This document shows positions 1-6,484 of a DNA stretch of 6,484 nt, one piece after another. Below the pieces are notes generated by a model. The model saw only the letters and a program-made list of their open reading frames with translations. It was not told where the DNA came from and ran no database searches. Source of the stretch: a virus (taxonomy: Duplodnaviria; Heunggongvirae; Uroviricota; Caudoviricetes); the IMG/VR virus record IMGVR_UViG_2734482598_000009. One strand, 5' to 3'. How positions within the stretch are numbered: position 1 is the first letter of the stretch; every line of letters begins with the position of its first letter. The position numbers and the translations under genes were made by a program.

Positions 1-107
1 CTCTCGTCTGGGGAATATCTCCCCGGCAGCCTTCAGGGAAAAATATCATCAGATGGCTGCTTAAAAAAAGAACAAATGGTAGTGTCCGCTATTGCCAGTA
101 CACCTCA
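1..107. repeat. Left copy of a 107-bp perfect terminal inverted repeat (partner 6378-6484)
   Basis: Bases 1-107 are the exact reverse complement of 6378-6484; the match ends at 108/6377. The repeat covers the upstream region and first 11 codons of the 76..306 ORF. Confidence 0.9.
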
Positions 108-306
108 TCCATCACCGAAAAAAATTGGCTTTTACACCATTGGCGATAAAAGCATTTACCTGTATGACCTACGCCGCATGGATGAAATCATGGAGGCTCT
201 TGATAATCGTTCGTCGATGGATTGGTGTGTTGCTGTTCATGATATGAATGCAGGGTTTGATGAAAAGATTTTGTTCCCCTCATCAGTTGAAAGCACTGCG
301 GGTTAA
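76..306 (+). CDS. Hypothetical protein, possibly 5'-truncated by the window edge
   Basis: ATG at 76 but no Shine-Dalgarno sequence upstream, and the frame has no stop between base 1 and 75, so the gene may start upstream of the window. Stop TAA at 304-306. No family recognised. Confidence 0.4.
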   Translation: MVVSAIASTPHPSPKKIGFYTIGDKSIYLYDLRRMDEIMEALDNRSSMDWCVAVHDMNAGFDEKILFPSSVESTAG

Positions 307-316
307 GGAGTAACAC

Positions 317-484
317 ATGACCACTATTACCAAAGAACGTATTGAATTGTTCATTAAAAACCCGCTTGAAAACGGGCTTACCCGTGGTGAACAAATGGAA
401 CTGGCACGGATTGCGCTGGCATCGCTGGAAGCAGAGCCGGTTGTGTTCTGGTTTGAAAAATATCAAGAAGGGGCTACGGCATGA
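317..484 (+). CDS. Small hypothetical protein (55 aa), first gene of a translationally coupled trio
   Basis: Strong RBS AAGGAG at 305-310, ATG at 317. Stop TGA 482-484 overlaps the next start (ATGA). Not in the supplied ORF track because it is under 60 aa. Shares the motifs MTT.T.E and IAL(A/V)SL(E/A)AEP with the next ORF. Confidence 0.55.
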
Positions 485-825
485 CGACTTTTACCAGAGA
501 GCAGTTAATAGCTCACGCAGAGGAGACTATTGAAGCACAGAGACTGTGCATACCGGGCACAATCGACCATGACATCATCCGCACATATAAGATGGATATT
601 GCTGTTCTGGAAATCGCACTGGTATCGCTGGCAGCAGAGCCAGCCGGTAAATTGCATGAATACAAACCAGTGGGATATCAGCGTCTGGTCGATGAGTTAA
701 CCATGCTGGTAAAGCAGTTAACCTGGCAACTGAGGAAAGCGAAGCCAGACTGCAAATTACCGGATAAGGCGATGAGTTATCTGGAGCGGAACGGACTGAT
801 AAGCGTGGAGGATATTTTACGATGA
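481..825 (+). CDS. Hypothetical protein (114 aa), N-terminal region paralogous to the upstream 55-aa ORF
   Basis: ATG at 481 overlaps the upstream stop (ATGA). [10 protein letters not shown] here matches [10 protein letters not shown] in the 55-aa ORF. Stop TGA 823-825 overlaps the next ATG. Confidence 0.6.
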
Positions 826-905
826 CCTGGCCTGAAGCATTAACAACGGTAGGAATTGCGATGGCGGTGGCGCTGGTGGTGTATTCGATTTGCCGCTGGG
901 GATAA
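822..905 (+). CDS. Small hydrophobic peptide (27 aa, [27 protein letters not shown]), putative single-pass membrane peptide
   Basis: RBS GGAGGA at 806-811, ATG at 822 overlapping the upstream TGA (ATGA), stop TAA 903-905. One hydrophobic stretch of about 18 residues. Very short, so coding status is uncertain. Confidence 0.35.
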
Positions 906-912
906 AAACGGT

Positions 913-940
913 TTGCGGGAAAAGGAGAGTTAAGTAGAAT
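913..940 (+). promoter_or_regulatory. Candidate sigma70 promoter for the hok mRNA (TTGCGG, 16-nt spacer, TAGAAT)
   Basis: -35 TTGCGG at 913-918 and -10 TAGAAT at 935-940. The predicted start near 947 coincides with the 5' element that is complementary to the mRNA 3' end. Confidence 0.4.
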
Positions 941-1059
941 TGCAGCGGGTGCTTGAGGCTATCTGTCTCAGGCATGAACACCAAAAGGCAGATAGAGAAA
1001 AGCCCCAGTTAACATTACGCGTCCGGCAAGACGCTTAACATTAATCTGAGGCTCAATCT

Positions 1060-1272
1060 ATGAACGGCAAATCTAGGTTAGCCTCTTACGTGCCGAAAGG
1101 CAAGGAGAAGCAGGCTATGAAGCAGCAAAAGGCGATGTTAATCGCCCTGATCGTCATCTGTTTAACCGTCATAGTGACGGCACTGGTAACGAGGAAAGAC
1201 CTCTGCGAGGTACGAATTCGAACCGGCCAGACGGAGGTCGCTGTCTTCACAGCTTACGAACCTGAGGAGTAA
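1060..1272 (+). CDS. Mok-like reading frame (N-terminally extended, in frame with hok, shared stop)
   Basis: ATG at 1060 with GAGG 8 nt upstream; 70-aa ORF whose last 51 codons are the Hok toxin. In-frame mok/hok arrangement with shared stop is recalled from chromosomal hok loci. Confidence 0.5.
   Translation: MNGKSRLASYVPKGKEKQAMKQQKAMLIALIVICLTVIVTALVTRKDLCEVRIRTGQTEVAVFTAYEPEE
1117..1272 (+). CDS. hokD: Hok/Gef-family type I toxin (51 aa), most like HokD/RelF
   Basis: MKQQKAMLIALIVICLTVIVTALVTRKDLCEVRIRTGQTEVAVFTAYEPEE carries the Hok hallmark (hydrophobic TM helix, TRK.LCE, conserved EV.AF.AYE). RBS AAGGAG at 1102-1107 with 9-nt spacing to ATG 1117. The hokD name is from recalled sequence. 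Confidence 0.85.
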   Translation: MKQQKAMLIALIVICLTVIVTALVTRKDLCEVRIRTGQTEVAVFTAYEPEE

Positions 1273-1321
1273 GAGACCAGGCGGGGGAGAAATCCCTCGC
1301 CACCTCTGATGGGTCAGGCAT

Positions 1322-1334
1322 CCTCAATGCACCC
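1322..1334 (+). promoter_or_regulatory. fbi-like 3' element of hok mRNA, complementary to the 5' end (947-958)
   Basis: 947-958 GGGTGCTTGAGG pairs antiparallel with 1322-1334 CCTCAATGCACCC as 6 bp + 1-nt bulge + 6 bp. This matches the fold-back (tac/fbi) architecture known for hok mRNAs. Confidence 0.45.
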
Positions 1335-1341
1335 ACACTTA

Positions 1342-1367
1342 ACCCGCTTCGGCGGGTTTTTGTTTTT
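1342..1367 (+). terminator. Intrinsic terminator of the hok transcript
   Basis: 6-bp stem ACCCGC/GCGGGT with a TTCG tetraloop (1342-1357), followed by TTTTTGTTTTT. Confidence 0.75.
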
Positions 1368-1492
1368 ATTTTCAACGCGTTTGAAGTTTTAGATGGTGCC
1401 GGAATAGAATCAAAAATACTTAAGTAGCGCGCAGGGAGAAGAGGGATGGACCCCGAACAGGGGAGTGCTATTTATCTGGAAGGATTCTGTTG

Positions 1493-1774
1493 ATGAAAAT
1501 CGAAGAATTACGTGAAATTTTTAGTGAAGATGGCCTCTATACTGTGCGCGTTGAGAATGGCGCTATTGTCAGCCACTGCCTTCCAGACTACACAATTCTG
1601 ATAATTCAGCCGTCTTTGCCAGCAGGCACGGGCGGCGCTCTCACGCATTTAAATCTGATTGGTACCAGCATCCCCCATGCACTGAAGAACAGGCCGAATG
1701 GCTCATTCAGTGTTACCGCAGGCGCGGATGCGAGGTTAAAAAAGCCCTTAGCCTCGACTACCGTCACTGGATAA
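1493..1774 (+). CDS. Rem-like small protein (positional analogue of Qin rem); probable frameshift into the alternative frame that ends at 1848
   Basis: RBS GGAAGGA at 1478-1484, ATG at 1493 (the ORF track starts at TTG 1490). The N-terminal ~50 residues look protein-like and the rest is low-complexity. A second frame, open 1555-1848 with no start codon, encodes a protein-like sequence and stops at TAA 1846-1848 beside the next gene's RBS and start. Confidence 0.4.
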   Translation: MKIEELREIFSEDGLYTVRVENGAIVSHCLPDYTILIIQPSLPAGTGGALTHLNLIGTSIPHALKNRPNGSFSVTAGADARLKKPLASTTVTG

Positions 1775-1849
1775 TCTCCGTCAGGCTCCCTTACTCCGAA
1801 CGGCCAACGCGTCCGTCCCGCACATTCCAGCAACGGATCTGGAGGTAAT

Positions 1850-2908
1850 GTGCGGGTATTACTTCGACCTGTTCTGGTACCGGAACTCGGTCTGGTTATC
1901 GTTAAGCCAGGCCGTGAATCAATGTCAGCATTCCATAACGGCAGAATACTGGTGGAGCCGGAACCAAAAAGCATGCGTAATCTGCCGTCCGGGGTCGTTC
2001 CTGCCGCTCGCCAGCCGCTGGTGGAAGACAAAACATTGCTGCCGTTTTTCAGTAACGCACGGGTGATTCGTGCTGCTGGTGGTGCTGGTGCATTGTCTGA
2101 CTGGCTGTTGCGCCATATTAAATCCTGCCAGTGGCCACACGGCGATTATCATCACAGCGAAACCGTCATTCACCGTTATGGTACCGGCGCAATGGTGTTG
2201 TGCTGGCACTGCGACAACCAGCTGCGTGACCAGACATCCGAATCACTCGAGCAACTTGCTCATCAAAACCTGTCAGCATGGATGATTGACGTCATCGGTC
2301 ACGCAATAAGCGGTACGCAGGAGCGTGAATTATCTCTGGCTGAATTATCCTGGTGGGCGGTCCGCAATCAGGTGGCGGACGCGCTACCGGAAGCGGTATT
2401 ACGTCGTTCGCTGGGGTTGCGTGCGGAAAAAATTCGCTCTGTGTACAGTGAAAGCGACATCATACCGGGAGAGCAGACAGCCACCAGCATACTGAAGCAG
2501 CGCACAAAAAATATTGCGTTACTGCCTCACGTCCACCAGCAACAGAACCCACCACAGGAAAAGACGGTGGTCAGCATTGCCGTTGATCCGGAGTCACCGG
2601 CTCAGTATCTCCAGCGCCAGAAATCACAACGGGAAGAGATGCCTGTATACACGCGCTGGGTAAAAACGCAGAAATGCATGACGTGTGGCAATCAGGCAGA
2701 TGATCCGCATCACATCATTGGTCATGGACTGGGAGGGATGGGAACAAAGGCTGATGATTTGTTTGTTATTCCGTTATGCCGTAAATGCCGTAACGAACTA
2801 CATGCCGGAGTAAAAGATTTTGAAGAGAAACACGGCAGTCAGCTGTTGTTGCTGATTCGTTTTTTAATGCACGCGAGAAATTCGGGTGTTCTGAAGTGGA
2901 AAGCATAA
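1850..2908 (+). CDS. DUF968-family prophage protein (YdfU-like) with a C-terminal HNH-like Cys/His motif
   Basis: 352-aa ORF from GTG 1850 with GGAGG at 1841-1845 (alternative ATG at 1922). C-terminus CMTCGNQADDPHHIIGHGLGG...LCRKCRNELH has CxxC...HH...CxxC...H. Sits immediately upstream of rusA, as ydfU-like genes do in lambdoid nin regions. Family call is from memory. Confidence 0.75.
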   Translation: MRVLLRPVLVPELGLVIVKPGRESMSAFHNGRILVEPEPKSMRNLPSGVVPAARQPLVEDKTLLPFFSNARVIRAAGGAGALSDWLLRHIKSCQWPHGDYHHSETVIHRYGTGAMVLCWHCDNQLRDQTSESLEQLAHQNLSAWMIDVIGHAISGTQERELSLAELSWWAVRNQVADALPEAVLRRSLGLRAEKIRSVYSESDIIPGEQTATSILKQRTKNIALLPHVHQQQNPPQEKTVVSIAVDPESPAQYLQRQKSQREEMPVYTRWVKTQKCMTCGNQADDPHHIIGHGLGGMGTKADDLFVIPLCRKCRNELHAGVKDFEEKHGSQLLLLIRFLMHARNSGVLKWKA

Positions 2909-3289
2909 ATGACCGAGCGCATAGAATTTGTTTTACCTTACCCGCCGACGGTGAACACTTACTGGCGTCGTCGTGGCAGCACATATTTTGTATCAAAAGC
3001 CGGGGAGCGTTATCGCCGGGCAGTGGCGCTTATTGTTCGCCAGCAGCGGCTGAAATTAAGCCTGTCCGGAAGGTTGGCAATAAAAATTATTGCAGAACCA
3101 CCGGATAAGCGCCGCCGTGACCTGGACAATATTCTGAAAGCGCCGCTGGATGCGCTGACGCATGCGGGGTTGCTAATGGACGATGAGCAGTTTGATGAAA
3201 TCAATATCGTTCGTGCTCAGCCAGTATCTGGTGGACGTCTGGGGGTGAAGATTTATCCCATAATGCTTGAAGGGCAGGTCAAAAAATGA
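2909..3289 (+). CDS. rusA: Crossover junction endodeoxyribonuclease RusA (Holliday junction resolvase)
   Basis: 126-aa product with PDKRRRDLDNILKAPLDALTHAGLLMDDEQF, matching the RusA catalytic core (PDRRRRDLDN...DALT.AG...DD). Start ATG 2909 directly follows the upstream TAA, and stop TGA 3287-3289 overlaps the next ATG. Confidence 0.9.
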   Translation: MTERIEFVLPYPPTVNTYWRRRGSTYFVSKAGERYRRAVALIVRQQRLKLSLSGRLAIKIIAEPPDKRRRDLDNILKAPLDALTHAGLLMDDEQFDEINIVRAQPVSGGRLGVKIYPIMLEGQVKK

Positions 3290-4005
3290 AACTGGAAGAT
3301 TTACCGNNNNNNNNNNNNNNNNNNNNNNNNNNNNNNNNNNNNNNNNNNNNNNNNNNNNNNNNNNNNNNNNNNNNNNNNNNNNNNNNNNNNNNNNNNNNNN
3401 NNNNNNNNNNNNNNNNNNNNNNNNNNNNNNNNNNNNNNNNNNNNNNNGCAGAAATAAAACCGGCAGTGATGCGTATTATGGCTTCGTATGCGTTTGAAGA
3501 TTATGCCCGTAGCGCGGCGAGCAAAAAACAGTGCCCCTGCTGTCACGGAAAAAAATTTATTGAAAGCGAGGTTTTTACAAACAAGATCCAGTATCCGGAT
3601 GGTAAGCCGCCGGTATGGGCAAAGTGTACGAAAGGTGTGTATCCGTCTTACTGGGAAGAATGGAAAAAAGTCAGGGAGGTGGTAAAAGTTGCCTGTCCGG
3701 AGTGTGGCGGAAAGGGTGAGGTTTCCACCGCCTGTAAGGATTGCCGTGGGCGTGGTGTCGCCATTCATCGTGAAGAGTCGGTAAAACGTGGTATGCCTGT
3801 TATCAGAGACTGCCAGCGTTGTGGTGGTCGTGGCTATGAAAGACTACCATCAACGGAGGCATTTAATGCTATATGCGAGGTGACAAACCAGATAACACGC
3901 GCGTCATGGGAAAAAACAGTTAAGAAATTTTATGATGCGCTGGTGACCCGGTTTGATATTGAAGAAGCATGGGCTGAGCGGCAGTTAAAAAAGGTAACTA
4001 GGTAA
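3286..4005 (+). CDS. Late antitermination protein Q (QuuQ-like) with four CxxCxGxG zinc-finger repeats; N-terminal part masked by Ns
   Basis: Lies between rusA and a PR'-like promoter. Contains CPCCHGKK, CPECGGKG, CKDCRGRG and CQRCGGRG. Frame is continuous across the 141-nt N-run (47 codons). Call is positional plus motif; 47 residues are unseen. Confidence 0.65.
   Translation: MKLEDLPXXXXXXXXXXXXXXXXXXXXXXXXXXXXXXXXXXXXXXXXXXXXXXXAEIKPAVMRIMASYAFEDYARSAASKKQCPCCHGKKFIESEVFTNKIQYPDGKPPVWAKCTKGVYPSYWEEWKKVREVVKVACPECGGKGEVSTACKDCRGRGVAIHREESVKRGMPVIRDCQRCGGRGYERLPSTEAFNAICEVTNQITRASWEKTVKKFYDALVTRFDIEEAWAERQLKKVTR
3307..3447. other. 141-nt run of N (masked or unsequenced) inside the Q gene
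   Basis: Literal N characters. Length is a multiple of 3 and the flanking frame is preserved. Confidence 0.95.
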
Positions 4006-4010
4006 CAAGG

Positions 4011-4050
4011 TTGATTTTTCCGGAATCTGTGGTAAATTCGTCATAACGAT
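4011..4050 (+). promoter_or_regulatory. PR'-like late promoter with promoter-proximal sigma70 pause element (qut-type region)
   Basis: -35 TTGATT 4011-4016; extended -10 TGgTAAATT 4030-4038; then CGTCAT followed by AACGATGGG (4045-4053). This parallels lambda PR' TAAATT-TGACTC-AACGATGGG (lambda sequence from memory). Starts 6 nt after the Q stop. Confidence 0.7.
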
Positions 4051-4086
4051 GGGCGTTTTATGCCTGACGTTAGAAGAGTTTCTACA

Positions 4087-4109
4087 ACCCGCCGCCGAGC
4101 GGGTTTTTT
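4087..4109 (+). terminator. Intrinsic terminator downstream of PR' (tR'-like)
   Basis: Stem CCCGC/GCGGG (4088-4092 / 4099-4103) with 6-nt loop, followed by TTTTTT 4104-4109. Confidence 0.6.
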
Positions 4110-4229
4110 ATGACTGAAATCGCGTCAGTACAGTAAACGCGCTGGTGGCGGTGAATACCTGTCTTTCAGCTTGCTGGCTTTTTCGACAAGAGTTATTGGT
4201 GTGTCACGTTAACCGGAAAAGGAAAAGAC

Positions 4230-4427
4230 ATGCTAAAACAGCAGGATATGACAGAAACCGCCAGAGTGGTGTTTAATGAATTAAGCGTTACCGAACCGGC
4301 GACAGTCGGGGAGATAGCGCAGAATACTTACCTTTCACGCGAACGCTGCCAGTTAATACTGACCCAGCTGGTTATGGCGGGTCTGGCAGACTATCAGTTC
4401 GGTTGTTACAGACGCCTTCCGCAGTGA
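4230..4427 (+). CDS. Small helix-turn-helix protein (65 aa), possibly winged-helix PapI/FaeA-like
   Basis: RBS AAAGGAAAAG at 4218-4227, ATG 4230. TVGEIAQNTYLSRERCQLILTQLVMAGL has an HTH pattern. Family assignment is tentative. Confidence 0.55.
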   Translation: MLKQQDMTETARVVFNELSVTEPATVGEIAQNTYLSRERCQLILTQLVMAGLADYQFGCYRRLPQ

Positions 4428-4437
4428 AGGCTTTTTT
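4414..4437 (+). terminator. Intrinsic terminator overlapping the stop of the HTH ORF
   Basis: Stem GCCTTC/GAAGGC (4414-4419 / 4426-4431) with 6-nt loop, then TTTTTT 4432-4437. Confidence 0.6.
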
Positions 4438-4454
4438 ATTTGTGGTAAATGGGC

Positions 4455-4485
4455 GGCTGGTGGGTGTTAGGGGCACCCACCAGCC
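4455..4485. promoter_or_regulatory. Perfect 12-bp inverted repeat separated by 7 bp (GGCTGGTGGGTG-ttagggg-CACCCACCAGCC); candidate operator or RNA hairpin
   Basis: Exact complementarity of 4455-4466 with 4474-4485. No U-tract on either strand, so it is not a canonical terminator. Lies between the HTH ORF and the methyltransferase. Confidence 0.6.
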
Positions 4486-4577
4486 ATCTGCTCATGCGTT
4501 GGGTTCACAAGCAAACCTCAGGCCCACTGCTTTGCGCAAAAGCAGAATGAGCCTATCAGAGACAGGCTTAATGATCC

Positions 4578-5636
4578 ATGCTTAATACTGTAAAAATATC
4601 CAGTTGTGAGTTAATCAACGCCGACTGCCTGGAATTTATCCGGTCGTTACCCGAAAATTCTGTTGACCTGATAGTCACGGACCCGCCGTACTTTAAAGTG
4701 AAGCCTGAGGGCTGGGATAACCAGTGGAAGGGCGACGATGATTACCTGAAGTGGCTGGACCAGTGTCTGGCGCAGTTCTGGCGGGTGCTGAAACCTGCCG
4801 GAAGTCTTTACCTGTTCTGTGGTCATCGCCTGGCATCTGATATCGAAATCATGATGCGTGAACGCTTCAGTGTGCTGAACCATATTATCTGGGCGAAGCC
4901 GTCCGGACGCTGGAACGGATGCAACAAGGAAAGCCTGCGGGCGTATTTCCCCGCCACAGAGCGCATTCTGTTCGCGGAACATTATCAGGGGCCGTATCGT
5001 CCGAAAGATGCCGGGTATGCGGCGAAGGGCAGTGCACTGAAACAGCATGTGATGGCCCCGCTGATTTCTTACTTTCGTGATGCGCGAGCTGCCCTGGGGA
5101 TAACGGCAAAACAGATTGCAGATGCCACAGGAAAGAAAAACATGGTGTCGCACTGGTTCAGTGCCGGTCAGTGGCAGTTGCCGAATGAAAGCGATTATCT
5201 GAAATTACAGGCGCTGTTTGCCCGGGTGGCAGAAGAGAAGCATCGGCGTGGTGAACTGGAAAAGCTCCACCACCAGCTGGTGGATACGTATACCTCACTG
5301 AACCGGCAGTATGCGGAGCTGCTGAGTGAATATAAACATCTGCGGCGGTATTTTGGCGTGACGGTGCAGGTGCCGTATACCGATGTGTGGACGCATAAAC
5401 CGGTGCAGTTCTATCCCGGGAAACATCCGTGCGAAAAACCGGCAGAAATGCTGCAGCAGATAATCAGCGCTAGCAGTCGTCCGGGTGACCTGATTGCAGA
5501 TTTTTTCATGGGGTTGGGTTCGACAGTGAAAGCGGCACTGGCGCTCGGGCGTCGTGCAATTGGCGTTGAGCTGGAGACTGAACGTTTTGAGCAGACGGTT
5601 CGGGAAGTACAGGATTTAGTCAGCCAGAACGGATGA
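4578..5636 (+). CDS. Orphan DNA methyltransferase, N6-adenine/N4-cytosine family, beta-class motif order
   Basis: 352 aa. Motif IV TDPPY near the N-terminus (DLIVTDPPYF) and motif I FxGxGS near the C-terminus (DFFMGLGST). No restriction endonuclease partner in the window. Weak RBS, and a 5-bp hairpin (4550-4568) lies just upstream of the start. Confidence 0.9.
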   Translation: MLNTVKISSCELINADCLEFIRSLPENSVDLIVTDPPYFKVKPEGWDNQWKGDDDYLKWLDQCLAQFWRVLKPAGSLYLFCGHRLASDIEIMMRERFSVLNHIIWAKPSGRWNGCNKESLRAYFPATERILFAEHYQGPYRPKDAGYAAKGSALKQHVMAPLISYFRDARAALGITAKQIADATGKKNMVSHWFSAGQWQLPNESDYLKLQALFARVAEEKHRRGELEKLHHQLVDTYTSLNRQYAELLSEYKHLRRYFGVTVQVPYTDVWTHKPVQFYPGKHPCEKPAEMLQQIISASSRPGDLIADFFMGLGSTVKAALALGRRAIGVELETERFEQTVREVQDLVSQNG

Positions 5637-5676
5637 TATTGAAGAATTAATTACGCGTCGTTATTATGCGGCTCCC

Positions 5677-5752
5677 GGCCCTTTAGCTCAGTGGTGAGAG
5701 CGAGCGACTCATAATCGCCAGGTCGCTGGTTCAAATCCAGCAAGGGCCACCA
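5677..5752 (+). tRNA. tRNA with CAU anticodon, ileX/ileZ-like (probably tRNA-Ile2 read via lysidine; tRNA-Met not excluded)
   Basis: Folds by hand into a cloverleaf: acceptor GGCCCTT/AAGGGCC, D-stem GCTC/GAGC, anticodon loop CTCATAA, T-arm GCTGG-TTCAAAT-CCAGC, encoded CCA. Close to the recalled E. coli ileX sequence. Confidence 0.85.
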
Positions 5753-5759
5753 TCACATA

Positions 5760-5795
5760 CCGCCATTAGCTCATCAGGAAAGAGCGCCAGCCTTC
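5760..5795 (+). tRNA. 5' part of a second tRNA running into the N-run; anticodon begins TC (consistent with tRNA-Arg UCU)
   Basis: Acceptor strand CCGCCAT, then TA, D-stem GCTC ... GAGC, anticodon stem CCAGC and loop starting CTTC before the Ns. Position 1 is C, which is unusual. Confidence 0.3.
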
Positions 5796-6045
5796 NNNNN
5801 NNNNNNNNNNNNNNNNNNNNNNNNNNNNNNNNNNNNNNNNNNNNNNNNNNNNNNNNNNNNNNNNNNNNNNNNNNNNNNNNNNNNNNNNNNNNNNNNNNNN
5901 NNNNNNNNNNNNNNNNNNNNNNNNNNNNNNNNNNNNNNNNNNNNNNNNNNNNNNNNNNNNNNNNNNNNNNNNNNNNNNNNNNNNNNNNNNNNNNNNNNNN
6001 NNNNNNNNNNNNNNNNNNNNNNNNNNNNNNNNNNNNNNNNNNNNN
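5796..6045. other. 250-nt run of N (masked or unsequenced), probably hiding the rest of the tRNA cluster
   Basis: Literal N characters, flanked by a tRNA 5' fragment and a possible tRNA 3' fragment. Confidence 0.95.
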
Positions 6046-6062
6046 GAATCCCCCTGTGCGGA
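6046..6062 (+). tRNA. Possible 3' end of a third tRNA (T-loop GAAT, T-stem CCCCC, acceptor TGTGCGG, discriminator A)
   Basis: GAATCCCCCTGTGCGGA right after the gap looks like a T-arm plus acceptor 3' strand. The implied 5' strand CCGCACA resembles the CCGCCAT start of the fragment at 5760. No encoded CCA. Confidence 0.2.
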
Positions 6063-6170
6063 GGGGCAATCAGCGAGTAGGTATATGGGATAATCGCGGA
6101 TTCAGGTGCTGGTACTGAATTCACCGGGAGGCACCCGGCATCATGCAATGGCACATAGCGCCACTCTCCA

Positions 6171-6191
6171 GCCCTCTCCGGAGGGGCTTTT
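6171..6191 (+). terminator. Terminator-like hairpin with T-run
   Basis: Stem CCCTC/GAGGG (6172-6176 / 6181-6185) with TCCG loop, then GC and TTTT (6188-6191). The U-tract is short and offset by 2 nt. Confidence 0.35.
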
Positions 6192-6377
6192 CTGTGCCGG
6201 ATACATCACAGTTTCTGGAACCTTAGGTACTACAGTATCAGTCAGGGTGCTATATTTTCAGATGTGATGAAAGCCTGTCAGCAGGCAGGGCGTATCGGAA
6301 ATGACCCAGTAGAGAAAACGTTGACTCAGATACCGGTGCTGAGTTACCGGGAAACCGGCATCACATGACCGCTATCC

Positions 6378-6484
6378 TGAGGTGTACTGGCAATAGCGGA
6401 CACTACCATTTGTTCTTTTTTTAAGCAGCCATCTGATGATATTTTTCCCTGAAGGCTGCCGGGGAGATATTCCCCAGACGAGAG
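6378..6484. repeat. Right copy of the 107-bp perfect terminal inverted repeat (partner 1-107)
   Basis: Exact reverse complement of 1-107. On the minus strand it repeats the first 11 codons of the left-end ORF, then diverges and stops after 21 codons. Confidence 0.9.

Follow-up and report, generated by a model that had tools for sequence, protein, structure and literature searches.

Two oppositely oriented IS600 copies bound a segment of decayed lambdoid prophage in Shigella sonnei

GENE CONTENT OF THE SEGMENT

The window, by which we mean the whole 6484-nucleotide stretch of DNA analyzed here, consists of a 6270-bp interior (positions 108–6377) with a 107-nt arm at each end. The interior is a degraded segment of a lambdoid prophage, spanning the region from replication to late regulation and read on the plus strand; its features were assigned from open reading frames (ORFs), RefSeq annotation of collinear Escherichia coli prophages, Pfam, and tRNA and Rfam analysis. 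A chimeric ORF of 76 codons (76–306, plus strand), delimited by aligning the native and chimeric proteins and discussed later, straddles the left boundary. It is followed by two small hypothetical ORFs (317–484 and 481–825), a sok RNA (947–1122), hokD (1117–1272), a DUF968 gene (1850–2908), a RusA gene (2909–3289), a gene for a Q-type antiterminator that is partly masked by N (3286–4005), an ORF of 65 amino acids (4230–4427), an N6/N4 DNA methyltransferase gene (4578–5636) and a tRNA gene with anticodon CAT (5677–5752). Two tRNA-Arg genes lie hidden under a second run of N (5796–6045), and an intergenic, STnc100-like region (6046–6377) completes the interior. Pfam families were assigned on the identical genes of one complete chromosome, L018, and comprise RusA, Antiterm, HOK_GEF, DUF968 and N6_N4_Mtase.

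The lambdoid affiliation is clear from alignment: 87% of the window matches annotated prophage regions of complete E. coli genomes at 94–97% identity. The order hokD, DUF968, RusA, Q antiterminator, DNA methyltransferase and tRNA-Ile/Arg/Arg is that of the late region of 933W-like and other Stx-phage-like prophages, and is shared, at 94–97% identity, with prophages in 155 complete E. coli genomes. The S. sonnei region differs from these relatives in being cut on both sides by the insertion sequence IS600, and in having no toxin gene after the tRNAs; in complete genomes, a SASA esterase and a holin are found past the right-hand IS instead.

The window also contains two runs of N that the first-pass annotation did not mention. 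One, of 141 N (3307–3447), lies inside the antiterminator gene and stands for 243 bp in all gap-free relatives. The other, of 250 N (5796–6045), likewise stands for 243 bp, comprising most of tRNA-Arg(tcg), all of tRNA-Arg(tct) and the spacer downstream. Since neither run has the length of the DNA that it replaces, the record could have been processed after assembly, the runs being either scaffold gaps or masks applied post hoc.

THE ARMS ARE THE ENDS OF IS600

A repeat search of the window finds that bases 1–107 and 6378–6484 are 100% complementary over all 107 nt, 6270 nt apart and flush with both ends, just as the first-pass annotation had reported. By our own calculation, a perfect inverted pair of this length would arise by chance in 6.5 kb with an expectation of (6484^2/2) x 4^-107, or ~1e-57. 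The second-best inverted pair within the window is 26 nt long and 73% matched.

Both arms are 100% identical to RefSeq loci annotated ‘IS3-like element IS600 family transposase’. From these matches, and from BLAST comparison with the 1264-bp IS600, the left arm (1–107, plus strand) is the last 107 nt of one copy (element positions 1158–1264), running into the window. Its translation gives the end of the transposase gene orfB, namely the last 20 codons, ending ...SRLGNISPAAFREKYHQMAA, and the stop (2–64, plus strand). The right inverted repeat, IRR, follows (about 80–107, plus strand), ending ...ACACCTCA, and window base 107 is exactly the terminal CA of IS600. The right arm (6378–6484, minus strand) is the last 107 nt of a second copy in inverted orientation, identified by the repeat search, the same BLAST comparison and full-length copies; the tip of its IRR, TGAGGTGT... 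on the plus strand, abuts base 6377. The element boundary itself was set by a ninF pseudogene that IS600 splits (locus L001), and by comparing filled with empty sites (L018).

Full copies at the locus are 1264 bp long and encode orfA and orfB as ORFs of 100 and 272 amino acids, with the Pfam domains HTH_Tnp_1, rve and rve_3; the RefSeq annotation of the IS600 transposase specifies a ‘programmed frameshift’. The terminal inverted repeats are about 28 bp, imperfect and of the form TG...CA, with 20 of the first 28 positions matching (IRL, TGAGGTAGCCTGAGTTTAACGGACACTCC; reverse complement of IRR, TGAGGTGTACTGGCAATAGCGGACACTAC). Near-identity to the exact termini, imperfect TG/CA repeats, an orfA/orfB pair with programmed −1 frameshifting and a 3-bp target-site duplication together identify the element as IS600. 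We see no substantive difference from IS600 (IS3 family) in Shigella chromosomes and pINV plasmids; of each copy, the window retains just the last 107 nt. Five insertion sequences, IS600 among them, have expanded in all Shigella species, whose reference chromosomes carry 229–348 IS insertions in total (PMC7373316). Across 5426 complete E. coli genomes, the 107-nt arm reaches as many as 43 occurrences in one genome, and it is found on plasmids too.

The repeat, then, is the tips of two oppositely oriented copies of IS600, a common insertion sequence, and as such is an ordinary, already known structure. The first-pass annotation had argued that a repeat of this length far exceeds typical IS ends. 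That comparison was misplaced, because the arms are not the terminal inverted repeats of a single element, but the same end of two copies that face each other.

AN ORF THAT BEGINS IN THE INSERTION SEQUENCE

The same annotation placed the start of the leftmost ORF within the repeat, and suggested, as one possible explanation, that the arms are the starts of two paralogous prophage genes in opposite orientation. The first part stands: an ATG-initiated ORF does begin in the left arm, at position 76, and takes its first 32 nt (MVVSAIASTP and 2 nt of the H codon) from the IRR of IS600. The remainder of the ORF corresponds to residues 22–87 of an 87-amino acid hypothetical prophage protein (WP_000224233-like), the gene for which is intact at positions 2936–3199 of locus L003. 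Insertion removed the first 65 nt of this 87-codon gene, and the 3′ two-thirds remain, fused in frame to an ATG that lies in IRR by chance. The gene start is thus a chimera rather than one of a duplicated pair, the arms are the IRR-side ends of two IS600 copies, and on the right, as read from the sequence, the same ATG opens a frame of only 21 codons. We regard the proposal of paralogous gene starts as having a negligible chance of being correct.

Many assemblies annotate the chimera as a gene. Within the collection it is indexed in 795 blocks, of which 83 have contigs longer than 1 Mb. The commonest size classes for contigs that bear it are 5–10 kb (325 blocks) and 2–5 kb (274 blocks), as would be expected of contigs bounded by IS elements.

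THE LOCUS IN COMPLETE CHROMOSOMES

Every non-N base of the window is matched at 100% identity in five complete S. sonnei chromosomes: L018, L020, L022 (CP022457, S. sonnei 2015C-3566), L023 and L025. In these, the 6270-bp interior (108–6377) lies between two full 1264-bp copies of IS600 that are inverted relative to each other, each with its IRR turned toward the segment, and the segment sits in a decayed lambdoid prophage adjoining ompW. Two earlier suggestions, that each end of the contig lies in one copy of a genomic inverted repeat and that the true repeat may exceed 107 bp, accordingly proved right: the full repeat is 1264 bp, the whole of IS600. A full-length left-hand copy is present in L013 and in L018–L027, and a full-length right-hand copy in L013, L018, L020–L023 and L025–L027. 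In L018 the two copies agree at all 1264 positions; in others they are 1–3 nt apart. Neither IS600/flank junction occurs in the 5426 complete E. coli genomes, where the 107 nt are never joined to the flanks seen in the window. This absence points to Shigella rather than to E. coli proper, and the contigs that encode the segment, together with two papers in which the accessions are named, confirm the link. An exact-pattern scan for either junction found 12 loci among viral contigs, and none in genome contigs or in metagenome contigs; the contig of the window itself is in none of the three collections.

These comparisons bear on the suggestion that the structure is an artefact of assembly or scaffolding, such as a palindromic mis-join or a chimera absent from the genome. 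A repeat flush with the contig ends, in a record that contains runs of N, might invite that reading. But a search for the same junctions in related genomes, a check proposed at the outset, finds both of them in closed S. sonnei chromosomes, at 100% identity and equal spacing. Only the truncation to 107 nt, inside a collapsed repeat, is the work of assembly, and we attach practically no probability to an artefact of this kind.

HISTORY OF THE TWO INSERTIONS

The right-hand copy retains its target-site duplication. The inner half, TCC, occupies window positions 6375–6377, and the partner lies beyond the IS, outside the window. The filled site in L018 reads GCTATCC–IS600–TCCTTCCAGG, with TCC on both sides of the element, and the empty site in L019 and L024 (CP060117, S. 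sonnei UKMCC1015) reads GCTATCCTTCCAGG, with a single TCC. This comparison shows that the right-hand IS600 is a simple insertion by ordinary transposition. Beyond it the prophage continues normally, with a DUF1737/SASA esterase gene and then a holin, in all eight of the complete genomes that have both copies. Some S. sonnei strains carry the insertion and others do not, and it could act as a lineage marker, although IS sites of this sort have already been catalogued in IS-mapping studies.

The left-hand copy has a more complicated history. Mapping of L003 against L018 identifies the TCC at window positions 108–110 as the inner half of its original target duplication: L003 2430–3003 corresponds to L018 7116–6543, L003 3001–3300 corresponds to L018 10033–10332, and the two intervals overlap by 3 bp, which are TCC. 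In complete genomes the partner TCC is found ~3.5 kb away, inverted, and so the copy is now without a flanking duplication; its outer flank is TTT (TAG in L026). Both halves of the duplication are therefore still present, parted by a later inversion. The outer flank also varies among S. sonnei genomes (L018 versus L026 and L013), with divergence beginning at the IS itself. The left-hand IS600 is thus shown to have cut into the 87-codon prophage gene, and to have served later as a breakpoint of inversion or deletion. That rearrangement, perhaps by one of several mechanisms, inverted a DUF977–DUF4014 block and cost the prophage its left arm; where it meets an integrase remnant beside ompW, no IS is present.

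A near-identical, inverted pair of IS elements bracketing cargo is also the architecture of a composite transposon, in which the two IS600 copies and the 6.27-kb segment would move the Q antiterminator, methyltransferase and tRNA module together. Tn10 with IS10, and Tn5 with IS50, are likewise inverted copies of one IS around a segment of several kilobases. The S. sonnei locus differs from these transposons. Its right-hand copy arrived independently, as its own TCC duplication and the empty site in L019 and L024 attest. Its outer flanks, TTT and TCC, share no target duplication, and the right outer flank is the same prophage continuing, in eight of eight complete genomes with both copies. Each of its two outer ends is an IRL, rather than one being IRL and the other IRR. 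Nor was an IS600–segment–IS600 unit found at a second, unrelated locus among all those examined. A composite transposon is, on this evidence, extremely improbable.

A different possibility is that the segment is an invertible element, with recombination between the arms flipping it and so altering expression, for instance if the late genes were thereby disconnected from Q and the tRNAs. Near-identical inverted repeats of 1264 bp do suit homologous recombination, and the differing left outer flanks (L018 versus L026 and L013) show that IS600 copies recombine. Yet the segment has a single orientation relative to the right flank in eight of eight complete genomes with both copies, and the window contains neither an invertase or recombinase ORF nor a short crossover site. 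In the Hin, Gin, Cin and Pin systems, a serine invertase lies adjacent to crossover sites of ~26 bp, whereas here the repeat is an entire IS. We consider an invertible element very unlikely; should the segment invert at all, it would do so incidentally, through homology, rather than as a dedicated switch.

CONTIG ENDS AT A COLLAPSED INSERTION SEQUENCE

We are highly confident that short-read assembly of an S. sonnei chromosome produced the window, as a contig or scaffold of unique DNA between two inverted, full-length copies of IS600, broken where this multi-copy IS was collapsed by the assembler. With many near-identical copies of IS600 in each Shigella genome, an assembler merges them into one repeat, and contigs of unique DNA then stop a set number of bases, here 107, inside it. 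The ends of the window are exact reverse complements because both run into the same end of IS600. Other draft contigs of the locus stop 32, 37, 47, 51, 61, 72, 107 or 1138 nt into the element, and from these varied depths it follows that the length of the arms mirrors assembly, not biology. The value of 107 probably reflects the k-mer or overlap size of the assembler. Contig breaks at collapsed IS elements are alike in stopping at a fixed depth inside the repeat at both ends; this one differs from the usual case in that both neighbors are the same IS end, so that the two overhangs are perfectly matched inverted copies of each other, where usually they would be unrelated. In the chromosome, RecA-dependent recombination between the two 1264-bp copies could invert the segment, of which no inverted form was seen.

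We find no evidence of a composite transposon, of programmed inversion or of a mis-join. It is conceivable, but in our judgment highly improbable, that the inverted pair is more than a scar: that the 6.3-kb Q–methyltransferase–tRNA module flips appreciably through the arms or is mobilized as an IS600-bounded unit, or that the IRR-borne ATG gives rise to an expressed chimeric protein of 76 amino acids, selected across S. sonnei.

A caution follows for draft genomes. A unique segment that lies between opposed copies of a multi-copy IS is expected to yield just such a draft contig, with a long, perfect inverted repeat flush with its two ends. The ends described here are not a new mobile-element terminus, and the locus adds nothing beyond the well-documented expansion of IS600, and decay of prophages, in Shigella.

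Identity of the terminal repeat

The perfect terminal inverted repeat described by the first-pass annotation is confirmed: bases 1–107 and 6378–6484 are 100% complementary over 107 nt, lie 6270 nt apart and coincide exactly with the ends of the window. The second-best inverted pair within the window is of 26 nt and 73%. A perfect 107-nt inverted pair in 6.5 kb (chance expectation ∼1e-57, by our own calculation) cannot be accidental.

When the whole window was compared with 5426 complete Escherichia coli genomes, the best-matching records aligned to 108–6191 only, from the first base after the left arm. The two ends were searched separately, and in no complete E. coli genome were the 107 nt contiguous with either flank. 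The 107 nt alone occurred in 2887 of these genomes, as many as 43 times in a single genome, and also on 790 Escherichia and Shigella plasmids; the annotated occurrences are labelled IS600 or IS3-family transposase. Against the annotated IS600 copy that splits ninF (L001; 1264 bp), the 107 nt correspond to positions 1158–1264 of the element, which makes window base 107 the terminal A of its ...CA end. The translation of 2–64 ends ...SRLGNISPAAFREKYHQMAA*, the C-terminus of the transposase frame, orfB. The terminal inverted repeats of IS600 itself, IRL and IRR, are short and imperfect (20 of the first 28 positions match), and so a perfect repeat of 107 nt is no ordinary IS terminus: it is the IRR end of two separate IS600 copies, face to face. 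The remark that the repeat is longer than typical IS ends sets unlike things side by side, the arms being the same end of two facing copies rather than the paired termini of one. The suggestion that the arms are the starts of paralogous prophage genes in opposite orientation is excluded by their identification as IS600.

The locus in other contigs and in closed chromosomes

Exact-pattern scanning for either IS600/flank junction gave no matches in genome_contigs or metagenome_contigs, and 12 contigs in IMG/VR. The IMG/VR locus L013, 10.8 kb from a contig of 21.5 kb, contains the entire window at 99.96–100% identity, flanked by a complete reversed IS600 and, at the opposite end, by 989 nt of IS600 that reach the end of the locus. 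The 76-aa ORF across the left junction occurs in 795 blocks of the collection of assemblies, most commonly in contigs of 5–10 kb (325 blocks) and 2–5 kb (274 blocks); 83 blocks have contigs longer than 1 Mb. Ten chromosomes of 4.8–5.0 Mb (L018–L027), returned for this ORF, were compared. Five (L018, L020, L022, L023 and L025) match at 100% at every non-N base of the window, and in eight a full 1264-bp IS600 copy lies on either side of the segment, the two in inverted orientation with IRR ends inward. Two of the ten accessions are named in papers: CP022457 (L022) is Shigella sonnei 2015C-3566, and CP060117 (L024) is S. sonnei UKMCC1015. In L018 the left and right copies agree at all 1264 bp, and in others they differ by 1–3 nt; the inverted repeat is thus in truth the entire element, as the suspicion that it extends beyond 107 bp had anticipated. 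IS600 copies at this locus vary at nt 126, 980 and 1148 (L020–L026).

The window is a contig of S. sonnei that runs from 107 nt inside one IS600 copy, through a piece of prophage, to 107 nt inside a second, inverted copy. A palindromic mis-join of the ends, the form in which an assembly or scaffolding artefact had been considered, is excluded, since both junctions, looked for in related genomes, are present in closed chromosomes. A dedicated inversion switch is unlikely: the window has neither a recombinase nor short crossover sites, and the eight closed genomes show only one orientation. RecA-dependent flipping may occur now and then, though none was observed.

Insertion history of the two copies

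The right copy has a simple history. Its filled site reads GCTATCC–IS600–TCCTTCCAGG, and the empty site, GCTATCCTTCCAGG, is kept in two S. sonnei chromosomes, L019 and L024. Comparison of the two reveals a 3-bp target duplication, the defining trait of the IS3 family, and the right copy is accordingly a simple transposition. Beyond it, complete genomes have the normal continuation of the same prophage, DUF1737/SASA esterase and then holin. TCC is the 3-bp target of both IS600 insertions here (108–110 and 6375–6377), and CGC that of the ninF copy; the shared TCC may reflect chance or a weak preference for this target.

E. coli prophages have an intact 87-codon hypothetical gene (L003 2936–3199), which the left copy interrupts after 65 nt. 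An ATG at 76, inside IRR by happenstance, is in frame with the rest of the interrupted gene. Where the first-pass annotation placed a gene start within the repeat there is indeed an ORF, but not a duplicated gene start: this is a chimeric 76-codon ORF, running from the IRR ATG into the truncated gene, its first ten residues IS-derived and the remainder residues 22–87 of the native protein. The flanking duplication is absent, with TTT outside and TCC inside (108–110). The partner TCC lies ∼3.5 kb away, inverted (L018 6543–6545 and 8769), and carries with it the first 68 nt of the interrupted gene and a DUF4014–DUF977 block; it abuts a truncated phage-integrase remnant beside ompW, with no IS at that junction. 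Because the two halves of the duplication are separated and inverted, the left copy has been a breakpoint of later events, and the arrangement suggests an inversion and an adjacent deletion, both breaking at its IRL. The reading of IS600–segment–IS600 as one composite transposon is contradicted on several counts: the right copy has a target duplication of its own, no duplication flanks the unit as a whole, both outer ends are IRL, and such a unit was never seen away from this prophage.

In L026 (CP045932) and L013, the outer flank of the left copy is a 203-aa ORF and a Dam-like methylase, unlike that of other S. sonnei genomes, which indicates rearrangement via the left IS600 in some strains. 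IS copies tend to drive rearrangements in Shigella, and the variable left outer flank fits this tendency. In L023, further out on the left side, the region differs beyond the position of an IS1.

The interior segment

The interior (108–6377) is the replication-to-late-regulation region of a lambdoid prophage. It comprises, in order, small hypothetical genes, sok/hokD, DUF968, RusA, a Q-type antiterminator, a 65-aa ORF, an N6/N4 DNA methyltransferase, a tRNA(CAT) gene (5677–5752), two tRNA-Arg genes beneath the second of two N runs, and a non-coding stretch. The tRNA(CAT) is called ‘Met’ by ARAGORN, and the same gene in E. coli prophages is tRNA-Ile (lysidine-modified) by RefSeq; it heads an Ile-Arg-Arg trio typical of 933W-like lambdoid phages. 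Rfam places, above gathering score, the sok antitoxin RNA at 947–1122, upstream of and overlapping hokD, and the sRNA family STnc100 at 6017–6199, downstream of the tRNAs, the latter match lying partly over an N run. A 250-bp stretch present in S. sonnei L019 and L024 is missing from the window lineage between 1580 and 1581. The deletion joins the beginning of a Rem-family ORF (1490–1774) to out-of-frame sequence, and takes away the start of a 92-aa gene that precedes DUF968; of the loci examined, those with the deletion are also those with the right-hand IS600.

The N runs cover part of the Q antiterminator (3307–3447; 141 N) and tRNA-Arg(tcg), tRNA-Arg(tct) and spacer (5796–6045; 250 N). In all gap-free S. 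sonnei relatives the sequence in place of each run is exactly 243 bp long (L018 13232–13474 and 15823–16065). Since the true lengths are the same and the N lengths unequal, the runs look more like masking after assembly than scaffold gaps.

Origin of the 107-nt arms

Draft contigs of this locus from other assemblies end 32, 37, 47, 51, 61 or 72 nt into IS600; three stop 1138 nt into it, and longer contigs and closed genomes traverse it in full. As the depth varies between assemblies, it is a property of assembly, not a biological boundary. In de Bruijn-graph assemblers all copies of an IS become one node, and a unique contig ends k or k−1 bases inside; by this general behavior, the 107-nt arms would be such a stop within a collapsed IS600 node. 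L007 (IMGVR_UViG_2734482560_000006; 6236 bp) likewise extends 107 nt into IS600 at either end and shares the left junction of the window; it has no methyltransferase gene in its interior, and on the right it meets IS600 at a different site. A different strain or variant of the prophage, put through the same assembly pipeline, is its probable source. L008, L009 and L015 stop at IS600 nt 127, adjoining polymorphic nt 126, which suggests that these assemblies ran through the repeat to where the copies diverged.

The observation of the repeat is real, and its meaning is ordinary. Five insertion sequences, IS600 among them, have expanded in all Shigella species, the reference chromosomes of which carry 229–348 IS insertions in total, with the highest recent IS activity in S. 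sonnei (PMC7373316). Given this expansion, contigs with IS600 at both ends are expected in Shigella, and about half of them would be expected to have the two copies in opposite orientation.
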